This document shows positions 3,865-36,384 of a DNA stretch of 37,060 nucleotides, in pieces. The notes under the pieces were generated by a model. The model did no database searches and was not told the origin of the DNA. It was given only the letters and a program-made list of their open reading frames with translations. The translations under genes and the position numbers were made by a program. Source of the DNA: a virus (Duplodnaviria > Caudoviricetes). The DNA is taken from IMG/VR virus record IMGVR_UViG_3300022666_000349, positions 1-37,060 of that record; one strand, written 5' to 3'. Within the stretch, counting starts at the first letter, position 1, and the number at the start of each line of letters is the position of its first letter.

Positions 3865-3885
3865 TGTAATCAATCCTTTTGTTTT

Positions 3886-19591: not shown

Positions 19592-20798
19592 ACCAGGCGA
19601 TGGCTACCACGGAGAGTTCACCGTATGCAATCCGCAGACTGGCGGCGCGGTTGCCGCTGATTCCCTCCCTGTCGCATCGGCAGCAGTTAACGGGGTGGCG
19701 GACGCGGCATTTGTGCTGACGGTCGCCGCTATCGAGGTGGGGCGGTACTCGATTACTGGCGCTGTCCCGGCGTATTCGGCAGGGGATACGGTGGTGATAT
19801 CCGTTACCGCGGCGGTCGATACCGTGACCGGCAAGGGCGTTGTGGACCGGTTCACCATTGATACCGCCCTCCCAGGCGAAAACGCAACCGCGATTGAGTC
19901 TTTGCCCGTCCCGCCAACAGCGGCACAGATCCGGGCGGAGATGGACGGCAACAGTACGAAACTGGCCTATCTGAACGCGACCATATCCTCAAGGGCGACC
20001 GTTAACGATGTCTGGTCCGCCGCAACCAGGACCATTACCGACAAGACCGGGTTCAGCCTCTCGACCGCCGGTATCCTGGCGATCTGGAATCAGGCCACGG
20101 CAGCCGCCGGGATACTGGTGAATACCTTTGGCGCGAAGTTGCGGGATTGGGCTCTCGGGACGGACAACAAAGCCCTTGTTTCCACGGACGCGCAAGACCT
20201 GTCCTCAACTCTCGACGTTAACGCCAAGACGGTCGAGGACAAGGCCGGGTATGCGCTGACTTCGGCGTATGACGCGGCGAAGTCAGCGGCGACGCAGGCG
20301 AGCGTTAATGCTATCCCTACCACTCCCCTGCTCGCTGACGACCCGAGGTTGGACCGCATCGCTTCAATCCCCATTACTCCCTTGCTGGCGGAAGACTACA
20401 CCGAGCCCGATAACGCTTCCATATCAGCAATTCTGGCCGCATTGCAACACAATATGTACGGCCTTGCAGCTCTGGACAGCCAATTGAACGCTATCATCAC
20501 GGCGCTGGGCGGTGTTGCGGCAAACAGCGATATCCAAACCCTTCTTGTCCGGCTGACGGAGGCGCGGGCGACGCTTATCGGCAACCTGCAATACCTCACG
20601 GAGGTTCCCGGCCTCACGGCCGGGCAGATCGACATTCTCACCGAAGCGAGAAACGAGGCGAAGCTCGCCCGGCAACTGGCAGGGAATAAGGCGGCCATCT
20701 CGCCCGATGGCCAGACCGTTACCATCTATGCCGACGATGACACTACCCCCTTGTGGACGTTCAACATCCCCGACGCCAAGACCAGGATACCGGCATGA
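19581..20798 (+). CDS. Putative tail fibre-like structural protein
   Basis: A/T-rich; PTAAQIRAEMD, VWSAATRT and C-terminal TIYADDDTTPL segments. Confidence 0.6.
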   Translation: MVRKPGDGYHGEFTVCNPQTGGAVAADSLPVASAAVNGVADAAFVLTVAAIEVGRYSITGAVPAYSAGDTVVISVTAAVDTVTGKGVVDRFTIDTALPGENATAIESLPVPPTAAQIRAEMDGNSTKLAYLNATISSRATVNDVWSAATRTITDKTGFSLSTAGILAIWNQATAAAGILVNTFGAKLRDWALGTDNKALVSTDAQDLSSTLDVNAKTVEDKAGYALTSAYDAAKSAATQASVNAIPTTPLLADDPRLDRIASIPITPLLAEDYTEPDNASISAILAALQHNMYGLAALDSQLNAIITALGGVAANSDIQTLLVRLTEARATLIGNLQYLTEVPGLTAGQIDILTEARNEAKLARQLAGNKAAISPDGQTVTIYADDDTTPLWTFNIPDAKTRIPA

Positions 20799-22906
20799 TA
20801 ACGTCATTTATGGGCGACGGGACAAAGGTTTCCGTTGACTCGACGTACAACCTGCGGTGGCTCTCCTATGCCGAGCAGCAGCTGGCGGGACTGGCGAGGG
20901 CAAGGGAATCGGCCAATGTGCCATCTCTGGCGAAGAAGTACATCCCGGAAAACGGGATAATCGTTCACGTCAGGGTCTCGTCGGACGACAGGGAAATCGA
21001 GATCATCAGAGAGCGGGTGGACGGTTTCCTGTTCCACCCGCGTTCCGGAGAGATTGACTGGAAAGCCCATACTTTTTGGGCGGGATTGGCTTACCGGACG
21101 GTCCAGTTTCCCTACGTCAAGGGCGCAGGGTGGCAGCCGAACGGGAAGCCATTGGAATGGTTGCCGGTTGAGTATCCCCTGGCCGATGACGACAAGGGCA
21201 CTCGGAACATCAAGCGGCGCGGCAACGGGAAATGGAAGTACATCAAAAACCCTCCGGAAAATTACGGCAATATCGACTGGAAGGGGCGGAGTACGGCGGC
21301 CCCCGGCGAACGCTCCAACGCGCCTGTACTGACGTGGAAAGGGCCGCCATCCAGGTATTTTGCCGAGGGGATGGAGTTTCCGCCAACCGGGGAGCCATAT
21401 TACACTCCCAACGTCTACGAGTCCGGGCGGGCGCTGGTCTCTGTGCCGGTCTCGGAAGAACCGGCGCAATACATGGGAGAGCCGGTCCCTTATGTTGTCC
21501 TGGGCGCAGCGTTGACCAGGGACGCAGAAGACGAGATGTGGCTGGTGGTGGTCGCCAAGGAGTATTATTACAATGCCTCGACCGGAGAAAGCCGCAATGC
21601 GTTGAGGATAGCGGCCCGGAATTACAAAGATCTGGATGATAAGCTGAATGACTGGTATCACGAAGAAGATAATCCGGAAGGTTGGCGGATACTGCTCGAC
21701 GGGGGCAATTTCCCCGCCGCATCCCCATGGCACTTTAACGCATCCGGCACAGAGTCAAGTTCCGTTCACGCATTTACCATCCACACCATCACCGTCAACA
21801 TCAACACGCTATCCGCTGAAATGGCGGCGGTCGCGGCGGCAGATAACATCTCAGGGACCGGCCACCAGGAAGGGACCGGGATAATGACCGGGCCGTATAG
21901 CGGTTGGGACGGCGCAGTATATACCCCGAGGGGTGAGATGTACGACCCATATCTCGTTGCCTCATGGGAGGCGGGAAACATTGGTTCATGCCGTTACTAT
22001 CAGGGTGGGTATGGGGTTAGATCGGAACGTGCGGAGGCGGTCTGTGCCGTGGACTACAAGGGCGATACGAAGGTGGAAGCCCGTTTGATTTATACCTCAT
22101 CGGCCAAAAGAGAAACGGCCATAGTGATGGACATCTCCGCGACAGCCACCACCCTTCCGGGGTCGGACAATCTGCCCACAAAAGGCACCCATCACGGGAA
22201 GAACCGCTCCGGGACGGTGACCACATATGACTGCCAGGTGCAACTAAAGATTGGCAGCACAACCACGGACCTTTATTGCGAGAGCATCAGGGGACACAAC
22301 GGAACCAAGGGCGAACTCAAATACACGATTGTCGAATGGTATGGCAATGACCCGTCCAGGATATCCGGCACACTATGGTCGATGACCCTTAATGACGAGG
22401 AGCGGGACATCCGGGCAGGCGTGGTCATGTTTCTGGACCTTCAGCACGATATCGCGGTGATTGCCAAACGGCGAATCTACAGCAACGTCACCAACCATAC
22501 GAACCAGCATTTTTACAATTATGATACGGCAGAGGATTTGTACCCGGACAACGAATCCACGTCCACCGTAGATTACGAAACGACCATGAACATCGTTGGC
22601 CAGGGTGAGGACGAGCTGCCGTGGTATGACCAATTCGTTTTCACAGACGACGATGAGAACGTTACCATGCAGTATCCGGCCTGGGCCAGCATCACGGACA
22701 TATCAACTGATTACCCTGTCCAGTCCATCCATTTCCGGTATTCAAATCAGCCAGTGGGATCGTGGGCTGTGGACCGGCACGGCAATCATTTCTATTCCAT
22801 GCTGAAGAAGGATGGAGTCTACAACTATCTGACGGACGGGGAACCGGTCGAACTGACGGAGACGGAAGGGGAGAACCCGGTATTCTTTCCCATTGCGCCG
22901 GTATGA
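20795..22906 (+). CDS. Large putative virion/tail protein
   Basis: ~703-aa ORF with ATGA coupling; aromatic and beta-rich. Confidence 0.6.
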   Translation: MITSFMGDGTKVSVDSTYNLRWLSYAEQQLAGLARARESANVPSLAKKYIPENGIIVHVRVSSDDREIEIIRERVDGFLFHPRSGEIDWKAHTFWAGLAYRTVQFPYVKGAGWQPNGKPLEWLPVEYPLADDDKGTRNIKRRGNGKWKYIKNPPENYGNIDWKGRSTAAPGERSNAPVLTWKGPPSRYFAEGMEFPPTGEPYYTPNVYESGRALVSVPVSEEPAQYMGEPVPYVVLGAALTRDAEDEMWLVVVAKEYYYNASTGESRNALRIAARNYKDLDDKLNDWYHEEDNPEGWRILLDGGNFPAASPWHFNASGTESSSVHAFTIHTITVNINTLSAEMAAVAAADNISGTGHQEGTGIMTGPYSGWDGAVYTPRGEMYDPYLVASWEAGNIGSCRYYQGGYGVRSERAEAVCAVDYKGDTKVEARLIYTSSAKRETAIVMDISATATTLPGSDNLPTKGTHHGKNRSGTVTTYDCQVQLKIGSTTTDLYCESIRGHNGTKGELKYTIVEWYGNDPSRISGTLWSMTLNDEERDIRAGVVMFLDLQHDIAVIAKRRIYSNVTNHTNQHFYNYDTAEDLYPDNESTSTVDYETTMNIVGQGEDELPWYDQFVFTDDDENVTMQYPAWASITDISTDYPVQSIHFRYSNQPVGSWAVDRHGNHFYSMLKKDGVYNYLTDGEPVELTETEGENPVFFPIAPV

Positions 22907-22959
22907 GATGCATTAATCAGACGATGCGGGGCAGGCAGGCGTATTTTATCAGCTGCCAT

Positions 22960-22978
22960 GTTCAATATAATATTGAAC
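22960..22978 (+). promoter_or_regulatory. Operator copy 2, containing TATAAT, upstream of the ejection-protein genes
   Basis: GTTCAA-TATAATA-TTGAAC, directly before the AAGGAGG RBS. Confidence 0.7.
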
Positions 22979-22998
22979 GCTAAAGGAGGGGACACACA

Positions 22999-24324
22999 AT
23001 GGCCGTGAACAGCAAGAGAGGGATATGGGGAATAGGTGACGAGTACGAAACGGACCCGGCCAGAATCGCCGATGTGTCCACCCTTTCCGGCGGATTAAGG
23101 GGCATCGCGGGCGGTCTGGCGGGCAAGGTAGCCAACACCAACATCCGGACGGCCAGGGCGCTCAGGCGGGGTATTGGTGATTTCCTGTCCATGGGCGCGC
23201 CTCCAGCGGGAGCAAACCCCATAGAATACCGCACGATGAGCGGTAAGAAAAAGGCGGAAATAACCACGGATGTGGCGAAACTCAGGGGCGCTCCTGCCCC
23301 TGTTCCAGCTTCCAAACCGTCCGGAGTCATGTCGCAAGCGCAGGCGGCGGAAATACCCAAAAACCTGACCAATGCCGGAGCGGGCGCGGCGTTGGCCGCC
23401 ATGGGCGGCGCGATTGATGAATCGGCGCTGCCAACCCCTCGTCAGGATGCGGCAACGCCGCCTCCCACAGAGGCCGGAACAGGCGTCACCCCCTCTGATA
23501 CCGGCGCCGGCTTCGCCATAGTGGACGGCAAGCGCATCAACTACAGCGACATCGGGACCAGCCTCGACCCGCTGAAAAAGAACGGTGGTTTCGCCATGGC
23601 GGGCAGTGTCCCAGGCATAGGAGAGATCCCGGCGGACCCGGCAATCGGCGCCATGGACCGAGAAGTAAAAAGAATCCAGGGTGTCCAGGATGAAGCCAAC
23701 CTTGCCGGCATAGGTTACATGCGACCAAAGGCCGCCCGCCGGGCAATCGCCTTCCGCCAGCGCCAGCAGGACCTGGATCAGCAAGGGAGAGAGCTGGACA
23801 TCAAGGATCGCCGGGTGGCCGCGGAAGAGGATTTCCGTAACCGGGAACTGGCCGCCAAGACCCCGCTCATGGACGCCCAGGCGGCCAACACCCTTGCCGA
23901 GGCGCGGGCGAGAGAATTCGCCATCTCCCCGGAAGGCGTCAAGCAGGCGCAGTCGAAGGGCGAAGCGGCAGACTACAAGGAAAACGTGAACAGATATTTC
24001 AACATGGTAAAGGAGCGGAACCTGCCGCAATCATGGGCGGGCAAGCATATGGAAATAGCCAGGAAATACGCCATGGCCGACGACCCGGCAAACGATTACG
24101 GCATCTTCTTCAACCCGGCCACGCCGGACAGCATGGGCATCGGGACCAGCAAGAAGCTGTTCCTCCCCATCCTTCAGGAGTACATGAAAAAAGGCTATTC
24201 GCAAGGAGACGCCATGGCCCGCGCGTTCCAGTACCTGCAAGGCCTGGAGAAGACAAAAGGGAAACTCTATGAAGACGTGCCGAACATCGACCGTCTGCCA
24301 TACGAAACCAAGCCGCAATACTGA
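22999..24324 (+). CDS. Putative internal virion (DNA ejection) protein
   Basis: A/G/Q-rich helical protein preceding the giant ORF. Confidence 0.6.
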   Translation: MAVNSKRGIWGIGDEYETDPARIADVSTLSGGLRGIAGGLAGKVANTNIRTARALRRGIGDFLSMGAPPAGANPIEYRTMSGKKKAEITTDVAKLRGAPAPVPASKPSGVMSQAQAAEIPKNLTNAGAGAALAAMGGAIDESALPTPRQDAATPPPTEAGTGVTPSDTGAGFAIVDGKRINYSDIGTSLDPLKKNGGFAMAGSVPGIGEIPADPAIGAMDREVKRIQGVQDEANLAGIGYMRPKAARRAIAFRQRQQDLDQQGRELDIKDRRVAAEEDFRNRELAAKTPLMDAQAANTLAEARAREFAISPEGVKQAQSKGEAADYKENVNRYFNMVKERNLPQSWAGKHMEIARKYAMADDPANDYGIFFNPATPDSMGIGTSKKLFLPILQEYMKKGYSQGDAMARAFQYLQGLEKTKGKLYEDVPNIDRLPYETKPQY

Positions 24325-24339
24325 ACAGGAGCGCGACAA

Positions 24340-27300
24340 ATGGGCGTTTACGATAAAGAACTACCTGAATTTCTCAACGCGGACATAGATTCCATCCTTG
24401 CGGATTTCCGCTCCAGGCCGATCCCCCCATACACCCCTCCGCCAGCTCCGGAGGAAGAAGACGGCGAATTCGTCAAGGGCCTCAAGCGGGGTGTGGAGGG
24501 CCTGAAAAGCTCGGCCTACGGCGCGGCAGGCCTCGCCGGTTCCGCCCTGGGTATGGACGACGTGCGCGACTGGGGTTACAAGGGTTTTCTGGAGCATGAG
24601 GAAGAAGCGGCCAAACACGCGGGCCGGGTGCAGACCCTCGAAGACATCAAAGGCCTGGGCGATGTGCCGGACTATGTGACAGGGACGTTCGGCAGCCTGG
24701 TTCCATCCATGGCCGAAAGCGCCGTTACGGCGACAGTGGGCAGCCTTATCGGTTCAACCGCCGGTCCGGGGGGCACGGTCGCGGGAGCTGCCACCGGATT
24801 CTTAGGCAAGCAGGCCGTCAAATCCGCAATCCGCAAACTGGCGCGCAAGTATGTCAAGGAAGGCATGGAAAAGAAACTGGCCCGCGAGGCCGCCGAAAGG
24901 GCCGTGGGCTTGCTCCCGGCAAAGAAAATAGCCGCCAACCTCGGGGCCAAGGCGGGCATTGTCGCCGGAACGGCCCCCATCGAAGCGGGCGCCATGTGGG
25001 GCGAGGGGATGCAGCAGGGCAAGGACAACCCCTATTCCGCCGCGGTATTCGGCACCCTGTCCGGCCTGTCGGAACTGGTCGGCGGCGAAGGCGAATTGAT
25101 CGACATATTCACCAACCCGGCCAGGCAAGCGGCCAAGGGAAACATCATCAAGCGCATCGGCATGGAGATGGTCAAGACCATCCCCCAGGAAGCGGCGCAG
25201 GAGGCCACGCAGGAGACCCTTGCCATCATCAACCGCAAGGTGGTGGACCCGTCGTTCGACATGTTCGGCGAGGAAGCGCGCAGCCGCGTGCTCAACTCGG
25301 CGGCGGCCGGGGCCATCGGCGGTGTCGCCTTCGGCGCGGCCGGCGGCGTCAAGTCTGGCAGGGAGAAAGGCCCGCTCACCAGGGCGGCGGAAGCGGCGGT
25401 TCCTCCCGCCACACCTCAACCCGCGATGGAGCCGGACCCCTTCCAGGACGAACAACCGCCCCACTACTCCGAAAAGCTGGAACAGGAAGAACAGCAGATC
25501 CGGGAAGCGGCAGGAGTTAAGCCGAACGAAGAGACCCCTGGCGGAACGACCGCTGAACAGCAACAGGTCGACCAGGACGGACCACTGTCCGGCGCAGGCA
25601 TGGGGCAAACGGACACCGTTCTGTCGGAAGACGAGCAGGCAATCCAGCAGCCGGTGAATGAGCAACAGAGGTCAACGGACGAATTGCTCCTGGACGATGC
25701 GCGGGATTGGGCGGCTGGACAAATAAAACTCGGGAAGACTCACCTGATGCGCCAGATTGCGGAGCCTCCTGACTCATACTACAAACGCCTGATAGACTCC
25801 TACCAAAAGCGCAACCAGAAGCCCCCCGCGCAACCGGCGGACACCGGCCCGAAATACGCCAGCGTCCAGCTTGTCAATCCGGAGTCGGGCGGAATCGAGA
25901 TAGTCAGGCCCGAAGAAGTGGCGGCCCGTCTGCTGTCAGGATGGAGACCCGTTGAACAAGATGTTTCACCCGTCACCCGTCACACATCACCCATCACCGG
26001 CTTGAACGCCGTCACCGAAAAAGAGCGCGAATCGCTCAAATCCGCCATGGAAAGGCTGCAATACTGGGAGCATTCCGGCACGGACGGGGGAAAATCCAAC
26101 AGGGAACAGCTCTATCCGTGGCTCTCCTCCTGGCCCACTACCACCCCTGCCGAAGTCGGCAAGGCAATCGGGCGGTTCCTGGAAGGAAAGAAACTGGGAG
26201 ATGTTCAGCAAAGGCTCGTGGAAGCGGCGCTGGAGTACGAGCGGGAAAACTCCGTCCCCTTCGACATAGCGGAAGAAACAACCGAAGAAGACGCCCCCCA
26301 GGCGCAAAGCGCCCCGGCGGGAAAAACGCCTCTGTCCGGGACCGTTCGCGCCAAGGCGCAAGCCTACGCCCAGTCTGCGGGCATGGACCTGGACGGAGCA
26401 ACGGACGAAGAGATAGCAGCCTTCGTCGAGAAGTACAGAGCATGGAAATGGGCCAAAAGACAGGAAGAACACTTAACGAAGAAGATAGAAAAAACCAGGG
26501 AACCAAAGGCCCTGGAGCGGCTGGGCAAATCACTGGCAGAGGCGACCAGCAAGCGGAAGGAGCTGGAACCGAAAGGACCGGTCGGCGGCGCGGCGCCAAT
26601 TACTGATAACCCATCACCTATTACTGACGTTACCGCTGATCGCAAGGCCCGCTGGGCCGAAGCCAGAAGAAAGCATCTCCTGAATAAGCTGGCGCAGGAA
26701 AAAGAGCCCAAGGCACGGGAACGCATAAGAAATACCCTTGTACGGCTGGAGGCGGAACGCGTTCCGCGACAGGAAGAAAGAAGGGGAAAAGGCGACGCCG
26801 AAAAACCGGCTTCGCAGAATGCCCCTGAAACGGTTTTCGAGGGCAAGGCAATACCAGAGCCTGGCCCGGAAAAGGAATCAGAAAAACATAAAGCCACTGC
26901 TAAACAGTGGCTCTTGACTGCGTTTGACAAGAGAACCGGCGCTGATACGTCGGCAGACACTACCAGCCTTGCCAGCACGGGTGACACAGCTCGCCATGCT
27001 ACCGATTCTACTCTTGATAAAACATTACCATCGGAAGACGCAAGTGTTAAAGATAGCGCCGGGGCCGTTCCGCCTGCCTCGGGGGAAATGTCGAAGGCGC
27101 CAAGTATGGTCAGGGATTTTGCCGCAAAGGTATTGAATGGTGAAGACCATCCAAAAAGACTGGTCTTCAAAGTGACAACGGAAACAAAACGCCAAAAAGT
27201 TATTAACGATACCGGTGTTGATATAGGTGGATCAGTGGAAATGGTTCTTCCCGATTCAATTATCCATGTGAAAAAACGGCACTTGGATATTACTCTCGAC

Positions 27301-30300
27301 GACTGGGAAAGACTCCCTGAGATAGCGGAAACATTCAACGATTCATACATTGGGCGCGCAATTGGAGATCCCAAAACAAAAAGAATGATTTTCGTCATAG
27401 AAAGCGACCCTTATCAATATGTATATGTGGCTGAATTTGCAAGCGGGGGCAGGGGAAAAAGGCTTATCGTTAAAACCTATTTCAAGGATACGTCCAAAAA
27501 TGTAGAAGATTTCCTTGAAAAAAATGCGCAAAAAACAAAAGAGGTTCCTTCTGGTGTCGGGGATCTCACCCAACCTGCTTTACGCCCCCAGAATTCCACC
27601 TCTTCTGTGAATATTGTCGCCAATTCCGATGGCAATGTCAAGGAAAACGAAGGGAAAATAGACGACTTTGGAGAAAAGATAGGCAGTGCGCGGAAGGGCC
27701 GGTTGCGGCAGGCAGAGCAGGGCCAACAGCAGAGCGAACAGAAGAAAACCGTCGGCGAGGAAAAGCCGGTCAGGTTTGCCCTCCGTCCAGACATGAGCAA
27801 CAAGGAAGCCCTTCCTGGCCTGGTGGAAAGAGGCGTAAACAACTATGCGCCGGGAATGAAATTTCCGGATTTCGCCAAAAGGATGAAGGCGGAGCTGGGC
27901 GAATTATGGGAGCGCTTCAAGTCCATGATGTTCAAGGTGTGGCATCAGGTGCGGGCGAAGTTCGCCGAAGAACGGGGGAGCTTGTCGCGGGAACAAAGAG
28001 AGGAAAGCTTGTTTCCTGCCGACGCCAGGGCAGAAGAGGAGAATTTCCGAAAACAGTTAAACGATCCGGATTCTAACCGGAGGTCATTGGTTGAGGTGGG
28101 AAGTACCCCCAAGATTCTAGTCAGATTGGGAGCGCAACAGAAACCACTTTACATATCTCGAACGACCATTGAGAAGATAACAATGCCGGAAGGGGTCGGT
28201 AAAGGAAAACACAATTTGCCGATTGATGTTCTGGACGGTCTCTATCGAAACTTGCATGACCCGGTAATGGTCCTTGAATCAAAAGTTGAGAATATTAAAG
28301 CATTCGTTGTAGTTACCGAGATGTTCGTCAATCAGGGTGGACGGCGGGTACCGGTTATTGCTGCAATTCATATCAACGAGCAGCACGGGCGTAATGTGAT
28401 TAATAGAGTCGCGAGCGTTTACGGTAAGGATAGTCTGAAGTGGTTTGAAAATGAAATATTGGAACGGAGGGTAGTCTACCGTAGTAAACAGAAAAGCCCT
28501 TCATGGCTCATGACTGCTGGGCTCCAATTGCCCAGGGTGAGAGGAGCTATGAAGAGCTTCACTGATTCAAGAATACTTACCGAGGATGATGTTGTCAACC
28601 CGAAATTCGCCGTTACTGCGGAAGCTTACGGCATCCCGGCCGCCGACATTCAGGCGGCTTTCGAGCCGGTCTACAGGAACATGCCCAAGGCTCCGCCCTG
28701 GCGGGTAGTGCAGACGGCGGCGGAGCTGCCCAGGCGAGCGCTGGATGACGCGGCCAGACGCGGGATGCCGCAACGCTTTCTCCAGGCTGTCTACCTGGGT
28801 AATGAAGTCGTCTACGTGGCGGACCATTTCGGTTCCATCGAGGAGGCAAAACAGGTCATCCTCGAAGAGGTCGTAGTGCATCACGGCCTGCGCGCGATCC
28901 TGCCGCGGGATGCCTACGAAAAGCACATGCTCCATGCGGCGCTCTGGTACGCCAACAAGCGCACGGAAGACTGGAAGGCCCTGGCGGAGGGGTACGGGCT
29001 CGACCTCAAGACCCGCGCCGGACGCATCGAAGCGGCGGAAGAAATGCTCGGGCGGGACGCCAGAACCGGCAAGAACTCCACCATGCTCTCCCGCATCATC
29101 GCCGCCGTGAAAGAATTCCTCCGAAGCGTCGGTTTCGATGTGGGGTATGGCGAGGCCGAGATCCGGGAACTGCTCGGCAAGGCCCGCCGGTATATAGAAG
29201 GCAAAGAAGCGCCCTACGAAAAAGAGGGGGAGGGGGGCATCGACTACGGCGCGCTGCTGCGGAAGCTCAGGGAGCAGGGAATCACGGATGAGCAGCTTCA
29301 GGCATTCATGGCGTATGAGCCGGGCGGGGGAAAATTCGCGGGAGTAACTGTGAGGAAGTATCCCGCCACGATGAGTGCCGACAGTATACTGGAAACCCTC
29401 AATCCCAACGTCCGAAACGATGGCGGTTCTGAAATAATTGTAAGAAATGGACCCGAAAAGTCAAGAGATATGAGATTTGCCTTGGCCCTCCTCGAAGACG
29501 TGAAATCCCAAATCATCGAAAAGGGCGTCACCCTCAACACCACGGAACGGGAGGTCTTGGAGGCGGAGCGGCCGATAGCTCTGGAAGCCATCGCCGAGAC
29601 GGTGAAGGATTACGACGAACCGGGCCGGTTCCTGTTCCGGGCGTTCTACGTGGCCGACCAGGAACTTGCCCCCGGCGTGGTGCCATACAACCCCGAGCGC
29701 GGCCACTACGCCGCCGGGGAAGACCTGAAAGGCTCCTGGTGGACCACCTCCCTTTCCACGGCCCAGGAGATAGCCTGGAGCAAGGCCCGATCAGGGAAAA
29801 GGGTCAAGGTTGTCGCGCTGCCAGTGGACAAGTTGCCAAATGGCAACATATACATCCAGAACACCAATCCGCCTGGTTTCGTCTATGATCTCTTCGTGGG
29901 TCTGCCCTCGGACGTTTCCATGAAGGACGTTCGGGAAATGCCGGTGGACGGAGGCGTGCGCTACGCCCTGGCCGGCGACGGCCTGCTCAGATACACGGAA
30001 CAATGGGGGTCCGCCGATGCCTGGAAATCACTCGTGCGGCTCCTGAACCCTCTGGACTGGTCCAGGTTCAGGGAATGGATCGACGAGCACACCCCTGTTC
30101 ATATCATGAACACTGTCGGCCATTGGCTCAGAACCCCGGTGGAAGCGGCAGAAGCGGACCCGAACAAGGCCCCGCTTGTCGATACCGCCCTGGACCGGGA
30201 GAAAAACAAGAACTCCCTCATCCTCAAGCTCCTGGGCTGGTTCGGCGGCAAGGAAAAACCCGCCGGATTCGTGGAGAGATTGACGGAGCAAGTCACCAGC

Positions 30301-33222
30301 TGGGGCAACAAGGACCTGTCCACCGCCTGGGGCGTGATAGCGGACAACTACGCGCGGCTCTCCGGCGGGGACAAGAAGGGCGTCAACCTGCTCATCTGCC
30401 GGGGAGACATAGACGGCAAGGCATGGCGCACCTACGACATGGTGAAGGGCGAGAAAAAACTGGCCGAAAACCTCCCCTCCGAAGCGGCCTTTCAGGCCTA
30501 CCGGGACATCCGGACCCACATCGACACCGTAGTGGCCGACACCATAGAGGCCGAGATGAGAAAGTCGGCGGCGGAAAACGGCATGTCCATGGACGAGGTG
30601 GAAAAGCACATCTTCACCTTCCGCAACAACATGGCCAGACACCCCGGCTGGATGCCGCGCAACCATGGCGAAGGCGACTGGCAGGTAAACGTGTACCAGC
30701 GCATCACGGGCCTCAAGTGGGAAATCGGCCAGTACCGCGCCGCGCATCACTATCAATTCCTCAAGAAAAACGGCGACAGGGTAGACTTCGAAAAGAGCAT
30801 AGACGCCCTGTCCGCCTACCTCCCGTACTTCCCCGGCAAGGCCGTGGCCGACGAGATAAAGACCCTCGCCCGGCGGTTTGGCCTCGCCTACGAGCACGAG
30901 AGCGGCACGGGACGCCAGCGCGTCTATGTGGACCAGGGCGCGGAAAAGCGGCTTGGCAAGGCCATTGCGAAGCTGAAGAAAGACCTTTCCGTTGAGGGAC
31001 TTCCGGAGAAAAAGCGTTTCGAGCTGCAAAGCAAACTGACCGGCCTGGAAGACGCCCTGTTCTTCGTCAAGGGTAACAGCCCGCAAAAGCAGATCCGCTT
31101 CTTCGTCAAGCAGGCGGCCAAAATCATCGGCAAGCTGGAACTGCAAAACAGCGTGAACATCCGCCAGGCGGAAGAGAATCTTGAGCAGGCCATAAAGGAC
31201 AAAGAATCCGCGGCCGAGATAAAGCGGCTCAGGGACGAATTGCAACGCCTGGGGGACGGCAGCATCAAGGTCAAGGTCTACATGAAGCTCCAGTCCTCCC
31301 GCTCCAGGGCCAACAGGCACAAGAAAGAAGTCATGGCCGGCCTGAAAAGGTTCATGCCCGAAAACTACCTGGACTGGGCCTCCTACGAAACAAGGGTGGA
31401 CTTCAACGACCGCTTGACCGAAGCCACCTACGGCGACATGCAGAACGATTTCGCCATGGAACAGGCCCAGTTGCAGGCCGTGGAACGGGCCGCGTCCAAA
31501 CAGGACATCAGCAAGACCGAGGCCGCCGGCATCCGCCATCAGATCGTCCAGTCCCTGGCCGAAATCCTCATGGCCAGGGGCGCCGGGGCCCATCGCATCC
31601 AGCGGGCGCCCTATCTCATCGAGGGATACGAGACCGAAAACCCCATACTGGCCTATCAGGATTACATGACCTCCACGGCGGGCATGATATCCAAGGCCCA
31701 GTACGCCTGCGCCCAGTTCGAAAACTTCCGCTACGCCAGGCCCGAGGTAAAACCCTGGGCCGAGCAGTACATCAGGGACACCCTGCGCAACATGGGCGCG
31801 GCGGACCGCATCGGCGCCAACCTCCGATCCGTCGCGACCCTGGCCTATCTGGGCTTCAAGGTCTCCTCCATGGTAATAAACTCCACCCAGCCGTGGACGC
31901 TGGGGATTGCTGAACTGGGCAAGCACACCCGGCAGAACGCGCTTGTGGCCATCGCCAGAGCGCAAAAGGACATCTTCAGGGGTAAACTGAGCGACGAGGA
32001 AAAGGCGATATTCTCCTCCGAGATCTGGAAGGAGCAGGAACAGAACACCGTCATCCGGGAAATGGCGGGAGCAGGTGAAGGGACAACCGGCAAGATATCC
32101 GGCTTCTTCCACACCCTGACCGGCAAGGCCCTGTCCGGCTTCCAGGAAGTAGAAATGCTCAACCGCAAGACCGTCATCCTGGCCGCCTACAGGAGCTTCC
32201 GGGCGGACGGAATGGAACACGCCGAGGCTCTTGACAAGGCCCTCCGGGTCAACCGGCGGGTAAACTTCGAAATGTCCAGGGCCAACCTGCCGGGCTTCGC
32301 CCAGAAACCGCTGGGAAGGACCGTGTACGCCCTGCAATCGTTCCTGTGGAATAACTGGAACTGGGTCTACAACAACCTCACCAGCGGCAAGAAAGAGGAC
32401 ATGGCGGCCATGCTCCGCTATGCGGCGGCCATGGCCATCATCGGCGGGGCGGCGGCGCTCCCGGGCTGGGACGAGCTCGACAAGCTCTATCAGACCCTCT
32501 TTGGCGAATCGCCCCGGCTGGCCTTCAGGAAATGGACGAAACAACACGCCCGCCAATACGGCGCCCTGGGCGAGATGGTCAACGGCTTCGCCTGGCACGG
32601 ACTCGCCAGCGCCACGGGCGTCAACATCTCCAACGCCATGCGCCTCCAGATCCCCATTGTCTCCCCGCTCCTGTCGGGCGACTCCCTCCCCGAGGCCGCC
32701 GGGGGCGTGTTCACCGGCCTTGCGCAGAAGGGGGGCAGGGCGGTTACCGCGGCCAGCCGGGGGGATTGGCACCGGGCGCTGGAAAACATCTCCCCGGAGG
32801 CCCTGGCCGGAGGCATGCGGGCCTACCGCATGGCCACCAAGGGCGCCACCACCGGAACCGGCAAGGTTATCTTCGACGAAAACGGCAGGCCCATGAAATA
32901 CGGAACCGGTGAAGCGGCTGTCAGGATGCTGGGCTTCCAGCCATCCCGCATCGCGGAACGAAACGACCTGACCAACGTGGAAAAGGGCCTCTCGGCGCAC
33001 TGGAGGGAACAACGGGGGGATCTGCTGGCCGAACTGAGATTGTCAAAACCTGGCCAGCGTAAAGAGGTGATGCTGAAGATAATGAAGTTCAACCGGCGTC
33101 TAAGGACGTCCCAGGCCAACGGACTCGTCCCGGTCATCAAAACGGCGGCCATCCGCCGGACCCTGAGCGACAGGCCCAACAAGGGCAAAGCCGAATGGCA
33201 AAGGGAGCAGTTGAGCGGGTGA
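24340..33222 (+). CDS. 2960-aa polyvalent/internal virion protein with PBECR-like, MuF-C-like, degenerate zincin and possible ART-like modules
   Basis: G/A-rich N-terminus; DSIIHVKKRH...IVKTYFK (~27110-27490); KGKH...LHDPVMV...NRVASVYGKD (~28040-28490); LPD5-like IDDFGEKIGSARK remnant; EEVVVHHGLR; large helical C-terminus. Confidence 0.85.
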   Translation: MGVYDKELPEFLNADIDSILADFRSRPIPPYTPPPAPEEEDGEFVKGLKRGVEGLKSSAYGAAGLAGSALGMDDVRDWGYKGFLEHEEEAAKHAGRVQTLEDIKGLGDVPDYVTGTFGSLVPSMAESAVTATVGSLIGSTAGPGGTVAGAATGFLGKQAVKSAIRKLARKYVKEGMEKKLAREAAERAVGLLPAKKIAANLGAKAGIVAGTAPIEAGAMWGEGMQQGKDNPYSAAVFGTLSGLSELVGGEGELIDIFTNPARQAAKGNIIKRIGMEMVKTIPQEAAQEATQETLAIINRKVVDPSFDMFGEEARSRVLNSAAAGAIGGVAFGAAGGVKSGREKGPLTRAAEAAVPPATPQPAMEPDPFQDEQPPHYSEKLEQEEQQIREAAGVKPNEETPGGTTAEQQQVDQDGPLSGAGMGQTDTVLSEDEQAIQQPVNEQQRSTDELLLDDARDWAAGQIKLGKTHLMRQIAEPPDSYYKRLIDSYQKRNQKPPAQPADTGPKYASVQLVNPESGGIEIVRPEEVAARLLSGWRPVEQDVSPVTRHTSPITGLNAVTEKERESLKSAMERLQYWEHSGTDGGKSNREQLYPWLSSWPTTTPAEVGKAIGRFLEGKKLGDVQQRLVEAALEYERENSVPFDIAEETTEEDAPQAQSAPAGKTPLSGTVRAKAQAYAQSAGMDLDGATDEEIAAFVEKYRAWKWAKRQEEHLTKKIEKTREPKALERLGKSLAEATSKRKELEPKGPVGGAAPITDNPSPITDVTADRKARWAEARRKHLLNKLAQEKEPKARERIRNTLVRLEAERVPRQEERRGKGDAEKPASQNAPETVFEGKAIPEPGPEKESEKHKATAKQWLLTAFDKRTGADTSADTTSLASTGDTARHATDSTLDKTLPSEDASVKDSAGAVPPASGEMSKAPSMVRDFAAKVLNGEDHPKRLVFKVTTETKRQKVINDTGVDIGGSVEMVLPDSIIHVKKRHLDITLDDWERLPEIAETFNDSYIGRAIGDPKTKRMIFVIESDPYQYVYVAEFASGGRGKRLIVKTYFKDTSKNVEDFLEKNAQKTKEVPSGVGDLTQPALRPQNSTSSVNIVANSDGNVKENEGKIDDFGEKIGSARKGRLRQAEQGQQQSEQKKTVGEEKPVRFALRPDMSNKEALPGLVERGVNNYAPGMKFPDFAKRMKAELGELWERFKSMMFKVWHQVRAKFAEERGSLSREQREESLFPADARAEEENFRKQLNDPDSNRRSLVEVGSTPKILVRLGAQQKPLYISRTTIEKITMPEGVGKGKHNLPIDVLDGLYRNLHDPVMVLESKVENIKAFVVVTEMFVNQGGRRVPVIAAIHINEQHGRNVINRVASVYGKDSLKWFENEILERRVVYRSKQKSPSWLMTAGLQLPRVRGAMKSFTDSRILTEDDVVNPKFAVTAEAYGIPAADIQAAFEPVYRNMPKAPPWRVVQTAAELPRRALDDAARRGMPQRFLQAVYLGNEVVYVADHFGSIEEAKQVILEEVVVHHGLRAILPRDAYEKHMLHAALWYANKRTEDWKALAEGYGLDLKTRAGRIEAAEEMLGRDARTGKNSTMLSRIIAAVKEFLRSVGFDVGYGEAEIRELLGKARRYIEGKEAPYEKEGEGGIDYGALLRKLREQGITDEQLQAFMAYEPGGGKFAGVTVRKYPATMSADSILETLNPNVRNDGGSEIIVRNGPEKSRDMRFALALLEDVKSQIIEKGVTLNTTEREVLEAERPIALEAIAETVKDYDEPGRFLFRAFYVADQELAPGVVPYNPERGHYAAGEDLKGSWWTTSLSTAQEIAWSKARSGKRVKVVALPVDKLPNGNIYIQNTNPPGFVYDLFVGLPSDVSMKDVREMPVDGGVRYALAGDGLLRYTEQWGSADAWKSLVRLLNPLDWSRFREWIDEHTPVHIMNTVGHWLRTPVEAAEADPNKAPLVDTALDREKNKNSLILKLLGWFGGKEKPAGFVERLTEQVTSWGNKDLSTAWGVIADNYARLSGGDKKGVNLLICRGDIDGKAWRTYDMVKGEKKLAENLPSEAAFQAYRDIRTHIDTVVADTIEAEMRKSAAENGMSMDEVEKHIFTFRNNMARHPGWMPRNHGEGDWQVNVYQRITGLKWEIGQYRAAHHYQFLKKNGDRVDFEKSIDALSAYLPYFPGKAVADEIKTLARRFGLAYEHESGTGRQRVYVDQGAEKRLGKAIAKLKKDLSVEGLPEKKRFELQSKLTGLEDALFFVKGNSPQKQIRFFVKQAAKIIGKLELQNSVNIRQAEENLEQAIKDKESAAEIKRLRDELQRLGDGSIKVKVYMKLQSSRSRANRHKKEVMAGLKRFMPENYLDWASYETRVDFNDRLTEATYGDMQNDFAMEQAQLQAVERAASKQDISKTEAAGIRHQIVQSLAEILMARGAGAHRIQRAPYLIEGYETENPILAYQDYMTSTAGMISKAQYACAQFENFRYARPEVKPWAEQYIRDTLRNMGAADRIGANLRSVATLAYLGFKVSSMVINSTQPWTLGIAELGKHTRQNALVAIARAQKDIFRGKLSDEEKAIFSSEIWKEQEQNTVIREMAGAGEGTTGKISGFFHTLTGKALSGFQEVEMLNRKTVILAAYRSFRADGMEHAEALDKALRVNRRVNFEMSRANLPGFAQKPLGRTVYALQSFLWNNWNWVYNNLTSGKKEDMAAMLRYAAAMAIIGGAAALPGWDELDKLYQTLFGESPRLAFRKWTKQHARQYGALGEMVNGFAWHGLASATGVNISNAMRLQIPIVSPLLSGDSLPEAAGGVFTGLAQKGGRAVTAASRGDWHRALENISPEALAGGMRAYRMATKGATTGTGKVIFDENGRPMKYGTGEAAVRMLGFQPSRIAERNDLTNVEKGLSAHWREQRGDLLAELRLSKPGQRKEVMLKIMKFNRRLRTSQANGLVPVIKTAAIRRTLSDRPNKGKAEWQREQLSG
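26880..27050 (-). ncRNA. Candidate antisense small RNA unit A (promoter, fold-back, terminator)
   Basis: TTAACA(27050-27045)-17-TAATGT; stem AGAATCGGTAGC/GCGCCGGTTCT; terminator AGCCACTG/CAGTGGCT plus U-rich tail. Confidence 0.55.
27528..27641 (-). ncRNA. Candidate antisense small RNA unit B with a T-arm-like hairpin
   Basis: TTGACA(27641-27636)-17-GACAAT; AAGAGGT/ACCTCTT and TTCTGG/CCAGAA stems; GTTGGG-TGAGATC-CCCGAC; ends TTTTGTTTTTT. Confidence 0.62.
28485..28598 (-). ncRNA. Candidate antisense small RNA unit C
   Basis: TTGACA(28598-28593)-17-TATTCT; 16-bp stem AAGCTCTTCATAGCTC/GAGCCATGAAGGGCTT; inner CTGGGC-AATTGGA-GCCCAG; U-rich end. Confidence 0.62.
29352..29464 (-). ncRNA. Candidate antisense small RNA unit D
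   Basis: TTGACT(29464-29459)-16-TACAAT; CCGCCATCG/CGTGGCGG closing stem, CGTTTCGGACG hairpin, GATTGAG/CTCATC arm. Confidence 0.55.
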
Positions 33223-33339
33223 TGATTAAACGGCACGCTGGCCATGCAATTTAACGGTGCAAGCCTGGCCCATGGAGTGAAGCGGAGATAGGTCATCTTC
33301 CATGGGAATCCTTTACAAGGCGAAACTCCAGGCGCCCAA

Positions 33340-33377
33340 CCGAGCGCGAGGGCTTTTATCTCTTCATGGGTAAGCAT
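33340..33377 (-). pseudogene. N-terminal remnant of an XRE-type antitoxin
   Basis: AAGGAG RBS then MLTHEEIKALAL, resembling HTH-antitoxin N-termini; similarity is lost afterwards. Confidence 0.4.
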
Positions 33378-33405
33378 GCCTTGTCTCCTTCAGCTCCACA
33401 GGTTG

Positions 33406-33735
33406 TCACCGTGCCTGGGATGAAGTCTCCAGAAGCTGTTCGGCAATCCAGGCATTGAGGCTTTTTCCCGCCTGTTTTGCCGCGATATATACCTTGCGGT
33501 GCAGATCGGGGGATATGCGCAACATGAATTTCCCGGTAAAAGGTTTTTCCGGCGCATGTCCCAGTTGCGCGCAGAAATCAAGATAGTCTTCAACGGAATC
33601 GTGGAAAGCGGCGCGTATCTCTTCCACGCTTGTTCCCTGAAAGGTGATGACATCGCGGGTGTTGATGACTTCTCCGTGAAAAACTCCCGCGTCGTCGTCA
33701 AAATCCACTTTGCCGAGATAACCCTTGTATTCCAT
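33406..33735 (-). CDS. hicB: HicB-family antitoxin (no adjacent hicA)
   Basis: MEYKGY...FHGEVINTRDVITFQG...SVEDYL...PEKPFTGKFMLRISPDLH...SLNAW. Confidence 0.92.
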   Translation of the reverse strand: MEYKGYLGKVDFDDDAGVFHGEVINTRDVITFQGTSVEEIRAAFHDSVEDYLDFCAQLGHAPEKPFTGKFMLRISPDLHRKVYIAAKQAGKSLNAWIAEQLLETSSQAR

Positions 33736-34031
33736 CACGGCTTGACACCAGCTGTTTTCAGCAAGACCTCCGGATGCAGGGAAGCGATACGCAAAAGGAC
33801 GCGCGCCGGTCCTTCCGGCTTGCGCCGTCCTTGTTCCCAGTTCCGCAGGGTAGCGACGCTGATACCCACCAACCGCGCGAACTTCTCCTGCGAAAGACCA
33901 AACTGTTCCCGAAGTTCGCGCACCTCGGTTTCGGGGAAATCAAAAGAGCGCGAAGGCTGCATGGTCCCTTTCAGGATTGCGGCGCCCTGCTTCATGCTTT
34001 CCATAAGCTCCTGGAAAAGGTCATCTTCCAT
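33735..34031 (-). CDS. higA: HigA/NadS-like HTH antitoxin
   Basis: LFQELMESMKQ...LSQEKFARLVGISVATLRNWEQGRRKPEGPARVLL. Confidence 0.9.
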   Translation of the reverse strand: MEDDLFQELMESMKQGAAILKGTMQPSRSFDFPETEVRELREQFGLSQEKFARLVGISVATLRNWEQGRRKPEGPARVLLRIASLHPEVLLKTAGVKP

Positions 34032-34344
34032 GGTAGTCCTCCTCTACAATCTTCTTGAGTTGCTTCACCTGGTCCCGCGTAAGGTCGCCCTGAACGTTTT
34101 TCGGGTACATAAACAGCAACAAAATGGTTTCCATAGAAATAAACCAGTAATAAATTATCCGGACGCCGCCTCTTTTGCCGCGTCCGTCAGTTGACCATCG
34201 CACTTTGCGAAGGCCGCCCCCTCCGGGAATAGCCTTCCCTGCGTCGGGCCTGTCAAGAAGTACGGACTGAAACAGTCGATACTCCTCATCCGACAGCATG
34301 GAAAGCGCCTGTTTGGTAAATACTGGTGTTTCGATTATGACCAT
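34021..34344 (-). CDS. higB: HigB2/RelE-family mRNase toxin
   Basis: IETPVFTK...PDAGKAIPGGGGLRKVRW...GKRGGVRIIYY...YPKN. Confidence 0.92.
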   Translation of the reverse strand: MVIIETPVFTKQALSMLSDEEYRLFQSVLLDRPDAGKAIPGGGGLRKVRWSTDGRGKRGGVRIIYYWFISMETILLLFMYPKNVQGDLTRDQVKQLKKIVEEDYHGR

Positions 34345-34350
34345 ACGCAA

Positions 34351-34379
34351 ACTATACGCCATTGGCGTATAAAGAACAA
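34351..34379 (-). promoter_or_regulatory. higBA promoter with palindromic operator; probably leaderless transcript
   Basis: TTGTTC-17-TATAGT, 6 nt before ATG 34344; inverted repeat TATACGCCA-T-TGGCGTATA (34353-34371). Confidence 0.8.
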
Positions 34380-34390
34380 CCAAAAACCTG

Positions 34391-34436
34391 TTGACGGCTC
34401 AATTTGAAGGTGATAGCGTTCATCAATATGTTGAAC
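34391..34436 (+). promoter_or_regulatory. Antirepressor-operon promoter with operator copy 3
   Basis: TTGACG-17-TAGCGT; GTTCAT-CAATATG-TTGAAC (34418-34436). Confidence 0.7.
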
Positions 34437-34580
34437 ACATCAAGAAAAAACCCCTTGAAAAACCCTCCGGATACTGGTAAAGGTATCGGTATCCAACCCA
34501 AGGGCGGCCGCGACCTAACAGCGGAACTTTTGTTTTCGGGAGAGAAAACCCGGAAACCTTATCACCGGCAAGAGCAAACC

Positions 34581-34661
34581 AGCGTGCCGGTAGAGATGCG
34601 CGGTACCCGTGAGGGCCGCGGCGCCTTGGGCGTGGATAGTCTCTACCGGCACGCTTTTTTT
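34581..34661 (+). ncRNA. C4/CI-like structured regulatory RNA in the antirepressor leader
   Basis: Perfect 16-bp stem 34581-34596/34640-34655 plus T-run; inner CCC-GTGA-GGG; loop CCTTGGGCGTGGAT complementary to two ATCCAACCCAAGG copies. Confidence 0.7.
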
Positions 34662-34693
34662 GTGCCGAAAATCCAACCCAAGGAGGTAGTACC

Positions 34694-35473
34694 ATGAAAG
34701 GAGAATTGATTGTAGCTGGCGTAGGAATCAAGCAGGATGCGGAAGGCCGATACTGCCTGAATGACCTTCACCGGGCAGCAGTTTCAAGCGGGGCGAACGC
34801 AAGATCCAAGGAGCCTAACAAGTTCTTTGCTAGTCCGCAAACAATTGAGCTTGTTAAGGAATTATCCGATACCCAAAATTCGGGTATCGCTCCAGTCAAT
34901 GCAATAAGAGGTGGAATAGAGCAAGGTACCTACGTTTGTAAAGAACTCATCTACGCCTACGCCATGTGGATAAGCGCTGCTTTTCATCTCAAGGTCATCC
35001 GCGCATACGATGAAATGGTAACATCTCCACCGGCCATCGACCCCATGCAGATCCTCAACGACCCGGTCACCATGCGCGGGCTGCTTTTGAACTACTCCGA
35101 AAAAGTAATCACCCTCGAAACCAAGGTCGCCGACCTGGAACCCAAGGCCGAGGCCCTCGACCGCATCGCCACTGCCGACGGCAGCCTCTGCATCACCAAC
35201 GCTGCCAAGGATCTCCAGGTCCGGCCCAAGGTCCTCTTCGGCTACCTCTCCCAGAACAGATGGATATACCGCCGCCAGGGTGGAACCGGCTGGGTCGCCT
35301 ATCAGGACAAGCTCCAGCAGGGACTCCTCGAGCACAAGGTTACCGTGGTCACCCGTGGCGACGGTTCGGAAAAAATGACCGAGCAGGTGCTGATAACCTC
35401 GAAAGGCATGGCCAGGCTGGCGGAGCTTCTCAACCCGTCACCCTTGCGTCTCGTGGCGGGCGGTTTCAAATGA
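34694..35473 (+). CDS. Phage antirepressor (KilA-N plus ANT/KilA-C)
   Basis: QDAEGRYCLNDLHRA...GTYVCKELIYAYAMWISAAFHLKVIRAYD; C-terminal PKAEALDRI...QVLITSKG. Confidence 0.93.
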   Translation: MKGELIVAGVGIKQDAEGRYCLNDLHRAAVSSGANARSKEPNKFFASPQTIELVKELSDTQNSGIAPVNAIRGGIEQGTYVCKELIYAYAMWISAAFHLKVIRAYDEMVTSPPAIDPMQILNDPVTMRGLLLNYSEKVITLETKVADLEPKAEALDRIATADGSLCITNAAKDLQVRPKVLFGYLSQNRWIYRRQGGTGWVAYQDKLQQGLLEHKVTVVTRGDGSEKMTEQVLITSKGMARLAELLNPSPLRLVAGGFK

Positions 35474-35676
35474 GCCCCGTCGCGGCACTGGCCGCTGATA
35501 TCTCCCCGGACATGGACGACAGCCAGAAGATGGAACTGTTGCGAACCGTCTGGCGCTACCGCACATTACCTCTTCCCGTCCTGATTCTCTTCACCGTCAC
35601 CATAATCGACCACGAAACCGGAAAGAAACTGTACAAAAAACTGTCAAGCCTCGTGAAAACAGTAAAACCCCTCTGA
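35470..35676 (+). CDS. Small hypothetical protein coupled to the antirepressor
   Basis: ATGA overlap; 68 aa. Confidence 0.5.
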   Translation: MSPVAALAADISPDMDDSQKMELLRTVWRYRTLPLPVLILFTVTIIDHETGKKLYKKLSSLVKTVKPL

Positions 35677-35686
35677 AAAGCCCGCC

Positions 35687-35726
35687 GCCTTCCCGGCAAC
35701 CCGTCAACCGCGGCTTGCCGGGAAGG
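35687..35726 (+). terminator. Hairpin ending the antirepressor operon
   Basis: CCTTCCCGGCAA/TTGCCGGGAAGG 12-bp stem; weak U-tract. Confidence 0.5.
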
Positions 35727-35746
35727 TTAGAATAATCATAAACAAT

Positions 35747-35792
35747 TTGACTCACTGGAGGCTTTCTAGTATTGTTCAACATTATATTGAAC
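35747..35792 (+). promoter_or_regulatory. Lysis-cassette promoter with operator copy 4
   Basis: TTGACT-17-TATTGT; GTTCAA-CATTATA-TTGAAC (35774-35792). Confidence 0.72.
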
Positions 35793-35819
35793 ATCGAGAA
35801 ACCAGGGAGCGAGAAGGTT

Positions 35820-36080
35820 ATGACCGAATGGCGCAATCCAAGATATCCGGAGCACACGCTGACCGACCATGACATTGAAATCCTCCGGGCGATCATCAAG
35901 GAGAGCGGTCACACCTGCTCTTTTACCGATGAGGAGCGGCAACTGCTGAAAGACATGGCGTCCGGCGGCAAGCTCATGAAACGAGCCGTCATATATCTGT
36001 TTGTCGCCCTGGCGTTATGGGCCGTCATCTCGGATGCGGCCCTGAAAAAGGCCGCGCAGATGATGGGGTTCATAAAATGA
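35820..36080 (+). CDS. Single-TM membrane protein (holin/antiholin candidate)
   Basis: C-terminal hydrophobic helix AVIYLFVALALWAVI; first gene of the lysis region. Confidence 0.55.
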   Translation: MTEWRNPRYPEHTLTDHDIEILRAIIKESGHTCSFTDEERQLLKDMASGGKLMKRAVIYLFVALALWAVISDAALKKAAQMMGFIK

Positions 36081-36199
36081 GAGAATGCCCGAAAGATTGC
36101 CAGGCGAAAGGAAAGGGCGCCTTGGCCCATGTGGAAAATCCCGATTGCGTCTGGAGAGGCTACAACGTTGAAGATGTAAAACCGGAGGCTGAAAAGTGA
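36077..36199 (+). CDS. Small hypothetical protein
   Basis: ATGA overlap; MRECPKDC... 40 aa. Confidence 0.35.
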   Translation: MRECPKDCQAKGKGALAHVENPDCVWRGYNVEDVKPEAEK

Positions 36200-36369
36200 C
36201 CTGTAATATCAGATGCCCGCTGAACGGGCGGATCTGTGAAGACTGCATGAACAACGAATCCGAACCGGACGGCCCCGATCCGGCGATGTATGAAGGTGAC
36301 GGCCATCCGCGCGAAGATGATTGGGAATTCGGCGTTCAACCGCACGGCGCCGGAAGCTGGGGAATATAG
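36196..36369 (+). CDS. Small acidic Cys-rich protein (not in ORF track)
   Basis: GGAGG RBS, GTGA overlap; MTCNIRCPLNGRICEDC...WGI, 57 aa. Confidence 0.45.
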   Translation: MTCNIRCPLNGRICEDCMNNESEPDGPDPAMYEGDGHPREDDWEFGVQPHGAGSWGI

Positions 36370-36384
36370 TCAGAGAGGGGCAAA

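Follow-up and report, generated by a model that had tools for sequence, protein, structure and literature searches.

The window examined here, a stretch of 37,060 nt formed by positions 1 to 37,060 of IMGVR_UViG_3300022666_000349, is a provirus record in which terminase, P22-like portal, capsid and adaptor genes precede a giant open reading frame (ORF) on the same strand. This ORF (24340–33222, + strand) encodes a polyvalent protein of 2960 aa and is the last and largest gene of the virion block, and its position suggests that the protein is packaged in the virion. An original prediction held that four small-RNA units lie antisense within the ORF, each read from its own promoter and placed at the end of a nuclease-like module. 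It is this pairing of nuclease domain and antisense RNA unit that is analysed below.

Two nuclease-like domains are recognisable in the giant protein. The MuF_C domain (PBECR-type; 28021–28500, + strand) was matched by Pfam at aa 1289–1387 with an E-value of 4e-18, above the cut-off, and in an alignment of 29 homologues His1291 is invariant and Ser1359 nearly invariant. The PBECR3 domain (27175–27504, + strand; aa 946–1055) has a Pfam E-value of 1.3e-5, below the cut-off, and an atlas score of 0.91; the PBECR3 match of the relative L001 is above the Pfam cut-off, and His976 and Thr1046 agree with the active-site pattern described by Iyer et al. 2017 (PMC5512222). Modelled with AlphaFold (mean pLDDT 89.8), the MuF_C module is closest among solved folds to CdiA-NC101 (Z 5.8, rmsd 2.8, 88 aligned), followed by BrnT (Z 5.1) and then by RelE and colicin D; a BECR-like RNase fold is thus predicted for the domain. 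The N-terminal MuF domain was absent from the giant protein in the Pfam scan. Like the PBECR/MuF-C polyvalent proteins of PMC5512222, the giant protein is large, multi-domain and encoded among virion genes, with mosaic modules and with PBECR3 and MuF_C domains that carry the putative active-site pattern of His and Ser/Thr, and these sequence features place it in the PBECR polyvalent family. Up to 26% of polyvalent proteins contain PBECR domains, and the packaging, injection and RNase activity of such proteins were predicted in the same study.

Four antisense units in the giant gene

All four minus-strand promoter-like sites of the original prediction are present inside the ORF. Promoter A (27022–27050) reads TTAACA-17-TAATGT with a TG before the −10 and scores 8/12, its counterpart in the close relative L001 being TTGACA; promoter B (27613–27641) reads TTGACA-17-GACAAT, promoter C (28570–28598) TTGACA-17-TATTCT and promoter D (29437–29464) TTGACT-16-TACAAT. 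The region 20000–37060 holds nine promoter-like sites, a total not above chance (shuffles, 6.5 ± 2.6), and B, C and D are the top three among them (10/12). Minus-strand sites of at least 10/12 inside the ORF numbered three, against means of 0.10–0.19 and a maximum of 2 in three codon-shuffled controls of 200 shuffles each. A fifth minus-strand site at 27417 (9/12) may be due to chance.

Each promoter is followed on the minus strand by a predicted RNA. RNA C (28488–28563), behind MuF_C, is a rod with a 12-bp closing stem, an inner stem of 4–6 bp with a 7-nt loop (28519–28533) and a U tail, and RNA B (27515–27607), behind PBECR3, has a 10-bp closing stem, two inner hairpins and a U tail. RNA A (26928–27015), of the PBECR1 type, is predicted to form a multi-arm fold, with a terminator-like hairpin and U tail 3′ of it (26880–26914, the hairpin at 26890–26914), and RNA D (29355–29430), of the PBECR3 type, has a closing stem, a conserved small hairpin (29409–29419) and a variable arm. 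The closing stems span 78, 74, 68 and 64 nt in A, B, C and D. B and C fold well (z-scores of −2.2 and −4.2) and A moderately (−1.7, or −3.2 with the second hairpin); D taken alone has no U tail and folds at chance level (+0.25 and +1.0), and the structural support for D comes from three other loci, two of them nearly identical.

The claim that every unit lies directly behind a nuclease-like domain likewise held for C, after MuF_C, and B, after PBECR3, and had to be narrowed for A and D, which follow last-strand remnants only. The PBECR1 remnant (26881–26930, + strand) retains just the last strand, part of the domain that is complete in L121 having been lost by an internal deletion, with the terminator-like hairpin at the deletion junction; the remnant region gave no Pfam match, and the full PBECR1 domains of L121 and L122 match with E-values of 4e-11 and 6e-11. 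Unit A matches the end of these full domains, and the RNAs there share its motifs, including two GUGUC motifs; as judged by eye, the closing stem of RNA A is unlike that of L121 in sequence, with pairing present in both. At unit D, the likely remnant last strand of a PBECR3-type domain (29341–29362, + strand), which is seen as a loose end in run X24, begins directly past the module junction. The near-identical protein P0008 lacks unit A, and in L001 another module replaces D, so that both are swappable inserts consisting almost wholly of the RNA unit. As far as sequence can tell, A and D are orphan RNA cassettes and not the ends of intact domains.

No relative turned up when the D peptide was used in a protein search, and the evidence on D comes from its small hairpin, which recurs behind full PBECR3 domains (Pfam) in L179, L182 and L195 and behind similar proteins in L174, L193 and L168. 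Across these PBECR3-type loci the hairpin stands in different frames or after the stop codon; a D-like remnant is present in L184, and the hairpin lies in intergenic DNA of L187 and L190. A 16-base pattern search for the D-type motif returned 26 loci, many of them apparent chance matches, and PBECR3 had five matches in 401 genomes of one phylum, with a clear D-type RNA only in L168. For domain B, no close homologues were found by tblastn in phages or by protein search, so that the covariation test of RNA B was limited to L001.

The D-type hairpin motif was also seen in L173, L177 and L191 (801–816), and in L188, where it falls in structured intergenic sequence behind a long ORF. The end of that long ORF looks like what we take to be an AAA-HEPN anticodon-nuclease-type protein, and Rfam gave no match for L173 or L188.

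Conservation behind MuF_C and other domains

The MuF_C module has 1493 relatives at the 50% cluster level, and 187 phage records match it. From viral, genome and metagenome contigs and three Stx2-type phage records we collected 99 distinct MuF_C segments, 69 after those more than 80% alike were dropped, from records that span Pseudomonadota, Spirochaetota, Bacillota, Desulfobacterota-type bacteria, Nitrospira and others. An antisense sigma70 promoter is present in 57/69, its −10 ending 84–165 nt past the last conserved Tyr; 50 synonymous recodings averaged 20, with no more than 28 in any of them, and at a score of at least 10/12 the count was 46 against 7. A perfect TTGACA is found in 42 of the 57 promoters and a 17-nt spacer in 53.

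Structure was tested in 46 single-unit cases. The inner 4-bp stem is paired in 94% of cells and pairs better than in every slid register, with 38 double-sided changes against 7 in shuffles, a test that relatedness among the sequences can inflate. RNAalifold missed the outer stem of the MuF_C RNAs and the closing stem of the A-type RNAs, because insertions and deletions misalign the arms, and we therefore used an arm-swap test, in which the best partner of the 5′ arm was its own 3′ arm in 28/46 (mean −21.5 versus −10.8 kcal/mol). The fold z-score was below −2 relative to synonymous recoding in 37/46, a tail of at least 6 T in an 8-nt window was present in 41/46, and G-U pairs were more frequent on the minus strand (111/1076) than on the plus strand (52/996). 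The loop-forming Leu codon is TTG in 37/37 cases, compared with 20% in the same domains, and the loop motif, found in 53/69, stands in other reading frames five times (L024, L076, L068, L012 and L019, the last of which looks spurious). Frame independence of the motif and conservation on the RNA strand together indicate that the conserved protein tail is a reverse read of U tail, RNA and promoter. Promoter and stem conservation behind homologous domains, and the codon-shuffled controls, had been named in advance as the tests that could overturn the original prediction, and they came out in its favour. Rfam returned nothing at E 0.05 for 20 homologue loci.

Two other interpretations of the structure were dropped: a hairpin of the sense-strand mRNA was ruled out by the strand of the promoter, U tail, G-U pairs and start sites, and mimicry of an anticodon loop by RNA C found no support, its 7-nt loop lacking U33. 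Tandem RNA hairpins behind one promoter, or a doubled tail peptide, follow MuF_C in L114, L117, L082, L081 and L045, possibly a step towards repeat arrays.

The arrangement extends to other domains. Scanning 676 kb of long ORFs gave 107 antisense and 3 sense promoter–stem–U units, a total biased by the choice of loci for MuF_C. There were 43 units not already anchored. Pfam was run on 29 of these; the remaining 14 comprised recognisable copies of MuF_C, unit B, a fragment and what looks like a false call within a MuF_C domain. Upstream of the 29 units Pfam found LPD3 in eight (one weak and probably false), MuF_C in five, PBECR3 in three and PBECR1 in one, with 12 unassigned or weak. The original prediction of nuclease and cognate RNA as a swappable, dual-coding cassette thus survives as a conserved, swappable module shared by several domain types; dual coding is not obligatory, since the RNA follows the stop codon in solo or C-terminal domains. 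Antisense promoter-stem units also lie behind domains with no Pfam match in L069, L074, L078 and L085, which are candidates for new nuclease families.

Start sites in lysogens and the tRNA-like Mu-type RNAs

Unit C is also found in Stx2-type phages, with an inner hairpin that matches and an outer stem that differs, and VT2-Sakai is identical to L003 at this unit. Differential RNA sequencing (dRNA-seq) of E. coli Sakai placed a start site at 1301472 (−), with a TEX enrichment of 24.07, antisense in ECs1242 of prophage Sp5 (PMC7547250, Dataset S1). This start lies directly behind the homologue of promoter C, at a position that we had computed from the promoter before looking it up; prophage Sp5 has 59 start-site rows over ~63 kb, from which our own arithmetic puts a chance match within a few bases at <1%. 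A further start, 5058595 (−; enrichment 14.58), behind the MuF gene ECs4971 of the Mu-like prophage Sp18 (PMC7547250), coincides with a promoter found in the sequence. The expectation that such promoters are active in lysogens is borne out at these two homologues, both on the minus strand. Judged by the agreement of positions, two homologous RNAs start in a lysogen carrying such phages, and the RNAs of the window itself remain predicted. For the window, no RNA holder figured among the listed sequencing runs; two runs that might have been RNA were contigs, probably of DNA, in which A, B and C were not covered, and they carry no information on expression. ECs1242 (L123) has one other antisense start, 1300538 in the numbering of PMC7547250, with no matching hairpin unit.

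The same Sp5 RNA also appears in Hfq data. The Hfq peak EcOnc36 (1301433–1301515, −), reported in five datasets by Tree et al. 2014 (PMC4104026), shares sequence with the unit C homologue: it takes in roughly 40 nt at the 5′ end of the RNA and reaches upstream of the mapped start. Over the whole of ECs1242, antisense Hfq-crosslinked reads exceed sense reads in all five samples, e.g. 26613 versus 1456 (PMC4104026). In the accessible parts of that paper and of a review that lists its target as unknown (PMC7873438), EcOnc36 figures only as this peak, with no link to a MuF-C domain.

The Sp18 RNA belongs to a Mu-type branch in which the RNA stands after the stop codon. It matches the Rfam tRNA model at 31.4 bits (gathering threshold 29, E 8e-5), with an enlarged and variable anticodon arm. 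The proteins of this branch are annotated as gene F products and their domain family is MuF_C (Pfam, L126); the 118–124 nt gap before gene G holds the RNA and no small immunity ORF. The Mu-type RNAs show covariation in the acceptor stem, conserved D- and T-loops and a hypervariable anticodon arm. ARAGORN found 0 tRNA genes in 16 Mu-type loci, and Rfam at E 0.05 gave no match for L157, L161 and L164. We tallied the putative catalytic His against RNA presence in this Mu-type set rather than in the polyvalent MuF_C set: among 33 distinct rows the RNA is present in 27/29 that bear the His and in 0/4 that lack it. In the four rows that lack both (Mu, D108, Mu_3F6 and a Shewanella phage) gene G directly adjoins the stop codon, and the Mu domain was called inactive by Iyer et al. 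(PMC5512222). The two His-bearing rows without RNA are L150, which is broken at the gene end, and L163.

Divergent cloverleaf-like RNAs were seen in L164 (1321–1429, −) and L157–L159, where they follow Mu-type MuF genes in phages of Pasteurella and of environmental origin.

Proposed RNA immunity and its rivals

From the module anatomy, the conservation on the RNA strand, the domain-linked RNA motifs and the two start sites in a lysogen, we lean slightly towards RNA immunity, in which the folded RNA binds and blocks the cognate virion-delivered BECR RNase. The polyprotein would be packaged and then injected together with the DNA, and its predicted RNase domains would cut host RNA, probably tRNA or ribosome-bound RNA. 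The RNA would serve as a decoy with the shape of the substrate; its likeness to tRNA is plain in the Mu-type branch, where a tRNA-shaped partner of a domain resembling tRNases suggests such a role. It would protect the lysogen, as well as the producing cell during late expression, and may turn off the injected enzyme after host polymerase transcribes the incoming DNA. Fusion of modules into a polyprotein would have required that the frame be kept open across the RNA gene, giving rise to the dual-coding linkers, and the orphan units A and D may either have been kept as protection from the nucleases of rival phages or be what is left after a domain was lost. RNA immunity is favoured by an RNA that is conserved in shape and loop, tied to domain type, made from a host-type promoter in lysogens and absent in most cases that lack the His, and by the ORF list, which has no separate ORF between the fused domains that could encode a protein antidote.

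Alternatively, the RNAs may silence their own gene in cis, in the manner of type I systems, by pairing with the late mRNA behind each nuclease domain so that cleavage or stalled translation mutes leaky expression in the lysogen. The complementarity is perfect by position, antisense Hfq-crosslinked reads stand far above sense over ECs1242, loss of the RNA alongside the His is predicted here too, and the mRNA would remain a target of orphan A and D. We nevertheless consider this unlikely, since complementarity to the own mRNA is kept whatever the loop sequence: a loop conserved here, and D- and T-loops conserved in the tRNA-like RNAs, are needless for such pairing and point to recognition by something else, as by a protein. 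Moreover, the RNA is almost fully self-paired, related hairpins are free-standing in intergenic DNA (L187, L190), and silencing in cis could not act on an injected protein. The conserved motifs linked to domain type, the tRNA-like shape and the lack of RNA where the His is lacking would also suit a ribonucleoprotein, perhaps packaged in the virion, in which the RNA is a cofactor or guide that aims or activates the nuclease, for example by tRNA-like docking on the ribosome or on a defence enzyme. This we regard as somewhat less likely still, as the regions that vary remain base-paired, with no variable single-stranded guide in evidence; expression in the lysogen, at a time when the late gene is largely silent, is more in keeping with protection; and orphan RNAs persist with no domain.

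The EcOnc36 peak in five datasets, the orphan and intergenic copies and the tRNA-like members could instead indicate that the RNAs act on targets of the host or rival phages independently of the domain, either regulating them through Hfq or serving as tRNA-like decoys for anticodon nucleases of the host and comparable defences; the fixed place behind BECR-type domains in many phyla and the absence of RNA alongside that of the His make this improbable. We give very little weight to the idea that the units are a by-product of protein linker conservation or of A+T-rich DNA. The modules are indeed A+T-rich relative to the giant gene, the overall promoter count is not above that of shuffles and D alone folds at chance level, but family-wide this explanation is contradicted by the synonymous controls, covariation, frame-independent motifs and mapped starts.

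Several observations weigh against RNA immunity itself. A Foldseek search with the MuF_C model found no hit at E 0.001, and the fold scores are modest, as the best Z given above attests. Iyer et al. argue, in the accessible part of PMC5512222, that PBECRs may spare tRNA and rRNA, with mRNA or CRISPR RNA (crRNA) as targets. Rfam matched nothing in the window at the gathering threshold, with matches at chance level by E-value only; the RNAs of the window gave no tRNA match, and the anticodon arm of the Sp18 RNA is non-canonical. The arms of RNA B differ from those of other PBECR3-linked RNAs, the promoter rule fails in 12/69 MuF_C homologues (two of which, L003 and L004, have the unit with a weaker promoter), and an Hfq peak over the Sp5 RNA suits a base-pairing RNA. 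The linkage of RNA type to domain type may also reflect shared descent. In the Mu-type tally L163 keeps the His with no RNA unit, and the cases of His loss belong to about two lineages (the Mu clade and L162), with many of the 29 His-bearing rows near-identical; given this close kinship, the tally amounts to about two independent absences and one exception.

If RNA immunity holds, the pairs would be type III-like in working, crossed with MuF toxins, yet they lack the defining features of both. Type III antitoxin RNAs lie upstream of their toxin and are co-transcribed with it, and AbiQ, AbiF and AvcID are further type III-like systems. The type I pairs SymE/SymR and RalR/RalA have an antisense small RNA opposite the nuclease gene that acts on translation initiation regions; here the antisense RNAs overlap the nuclease transcript by position but are located far within a 9-kb ORF or beyond the stop codon, and their loops are conserved. 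With type III systems such as ToxIN (PMC8860590) the present pairs share an RNase-type protein and a cognate structured non-coding RNA, and a few loci have tandem hairpins. They differ in the BECR fold, the virion gene block and an RNA that usually comes as one copy, is encoded antisense either within the ORF or downstream, and is read from its own promoter. Neither a toxin of a described type III family was found (Pfam gave MuF_C and PBECR3, and the fold neighbours are BECR RNases) nor the pseudoknot repeat array of type III antitoxins, the units being single hairpins or cloverleaves, with no Rfam match in the window or in 20 homologue loci. In the accessible part of Jamet et al. 2017 (PMC5576092), MuF polymorphic toxins are head-associated proteins of temperate phages whose C-terminal toxin domains are proposed to be injected; they share a cognate element directly downstream, which there is a small immunity ORF, whereas here it is an RNA and the domains are internal to one ORF.

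In the literature searched, which left subscription papers largely uncovered, we found no description of a nuclease domain paired with an antisense RNA. The main text of PMC5512222 contains neither 'antisense' nor 'noncoding', and its accessible parts describe no RNA partner or immunity for these domains; the accessible part of a 2026 BECR preprint gave zero counts for 'antisense', 'small RNA' and 'RNA antitoxin'. What is shown is the anatomy of the pair, one member RNA having already been catalogued, as EcOnc36, with no function. A cognate RNA, if confirmed, would supply the missing partner of PBECR domains, and a 150-aa domain with a 70-nt RNA would make the question directly testable. RNA antitoxins would then also be known against injected effectors, a conserved 'protein motif' would turn out to be an RNA gene read in reverse, and an uncharacterised small RNA of common Stx2-type prophages would gain a role. 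More tentatively, and at rather less than even chances, there may be a widespread class of virion-delivered RNase weapons with RNA immunity, each BECR family having its own decoy RNA, some of them tRNA mimics. With the RNA genes antisense within the nuclease polyprotein, weapon and antidote would recombine as one cassette, and phages would collect orphan cassettes against the nucleases of their rivals.

Elsewhere in the window, RelE, HTH and HicB genes, a toxin-antitoxin-like trio, lie directly downstream of the giant gene (33406–34383, − strand), and a KilA-N/ANT antirepressor gene (34694–35473, + strand) lies near the right end. T5orf172 and HNH nuclease genes occupy an A+T-rich patch on the minus strand at 3382–4663.

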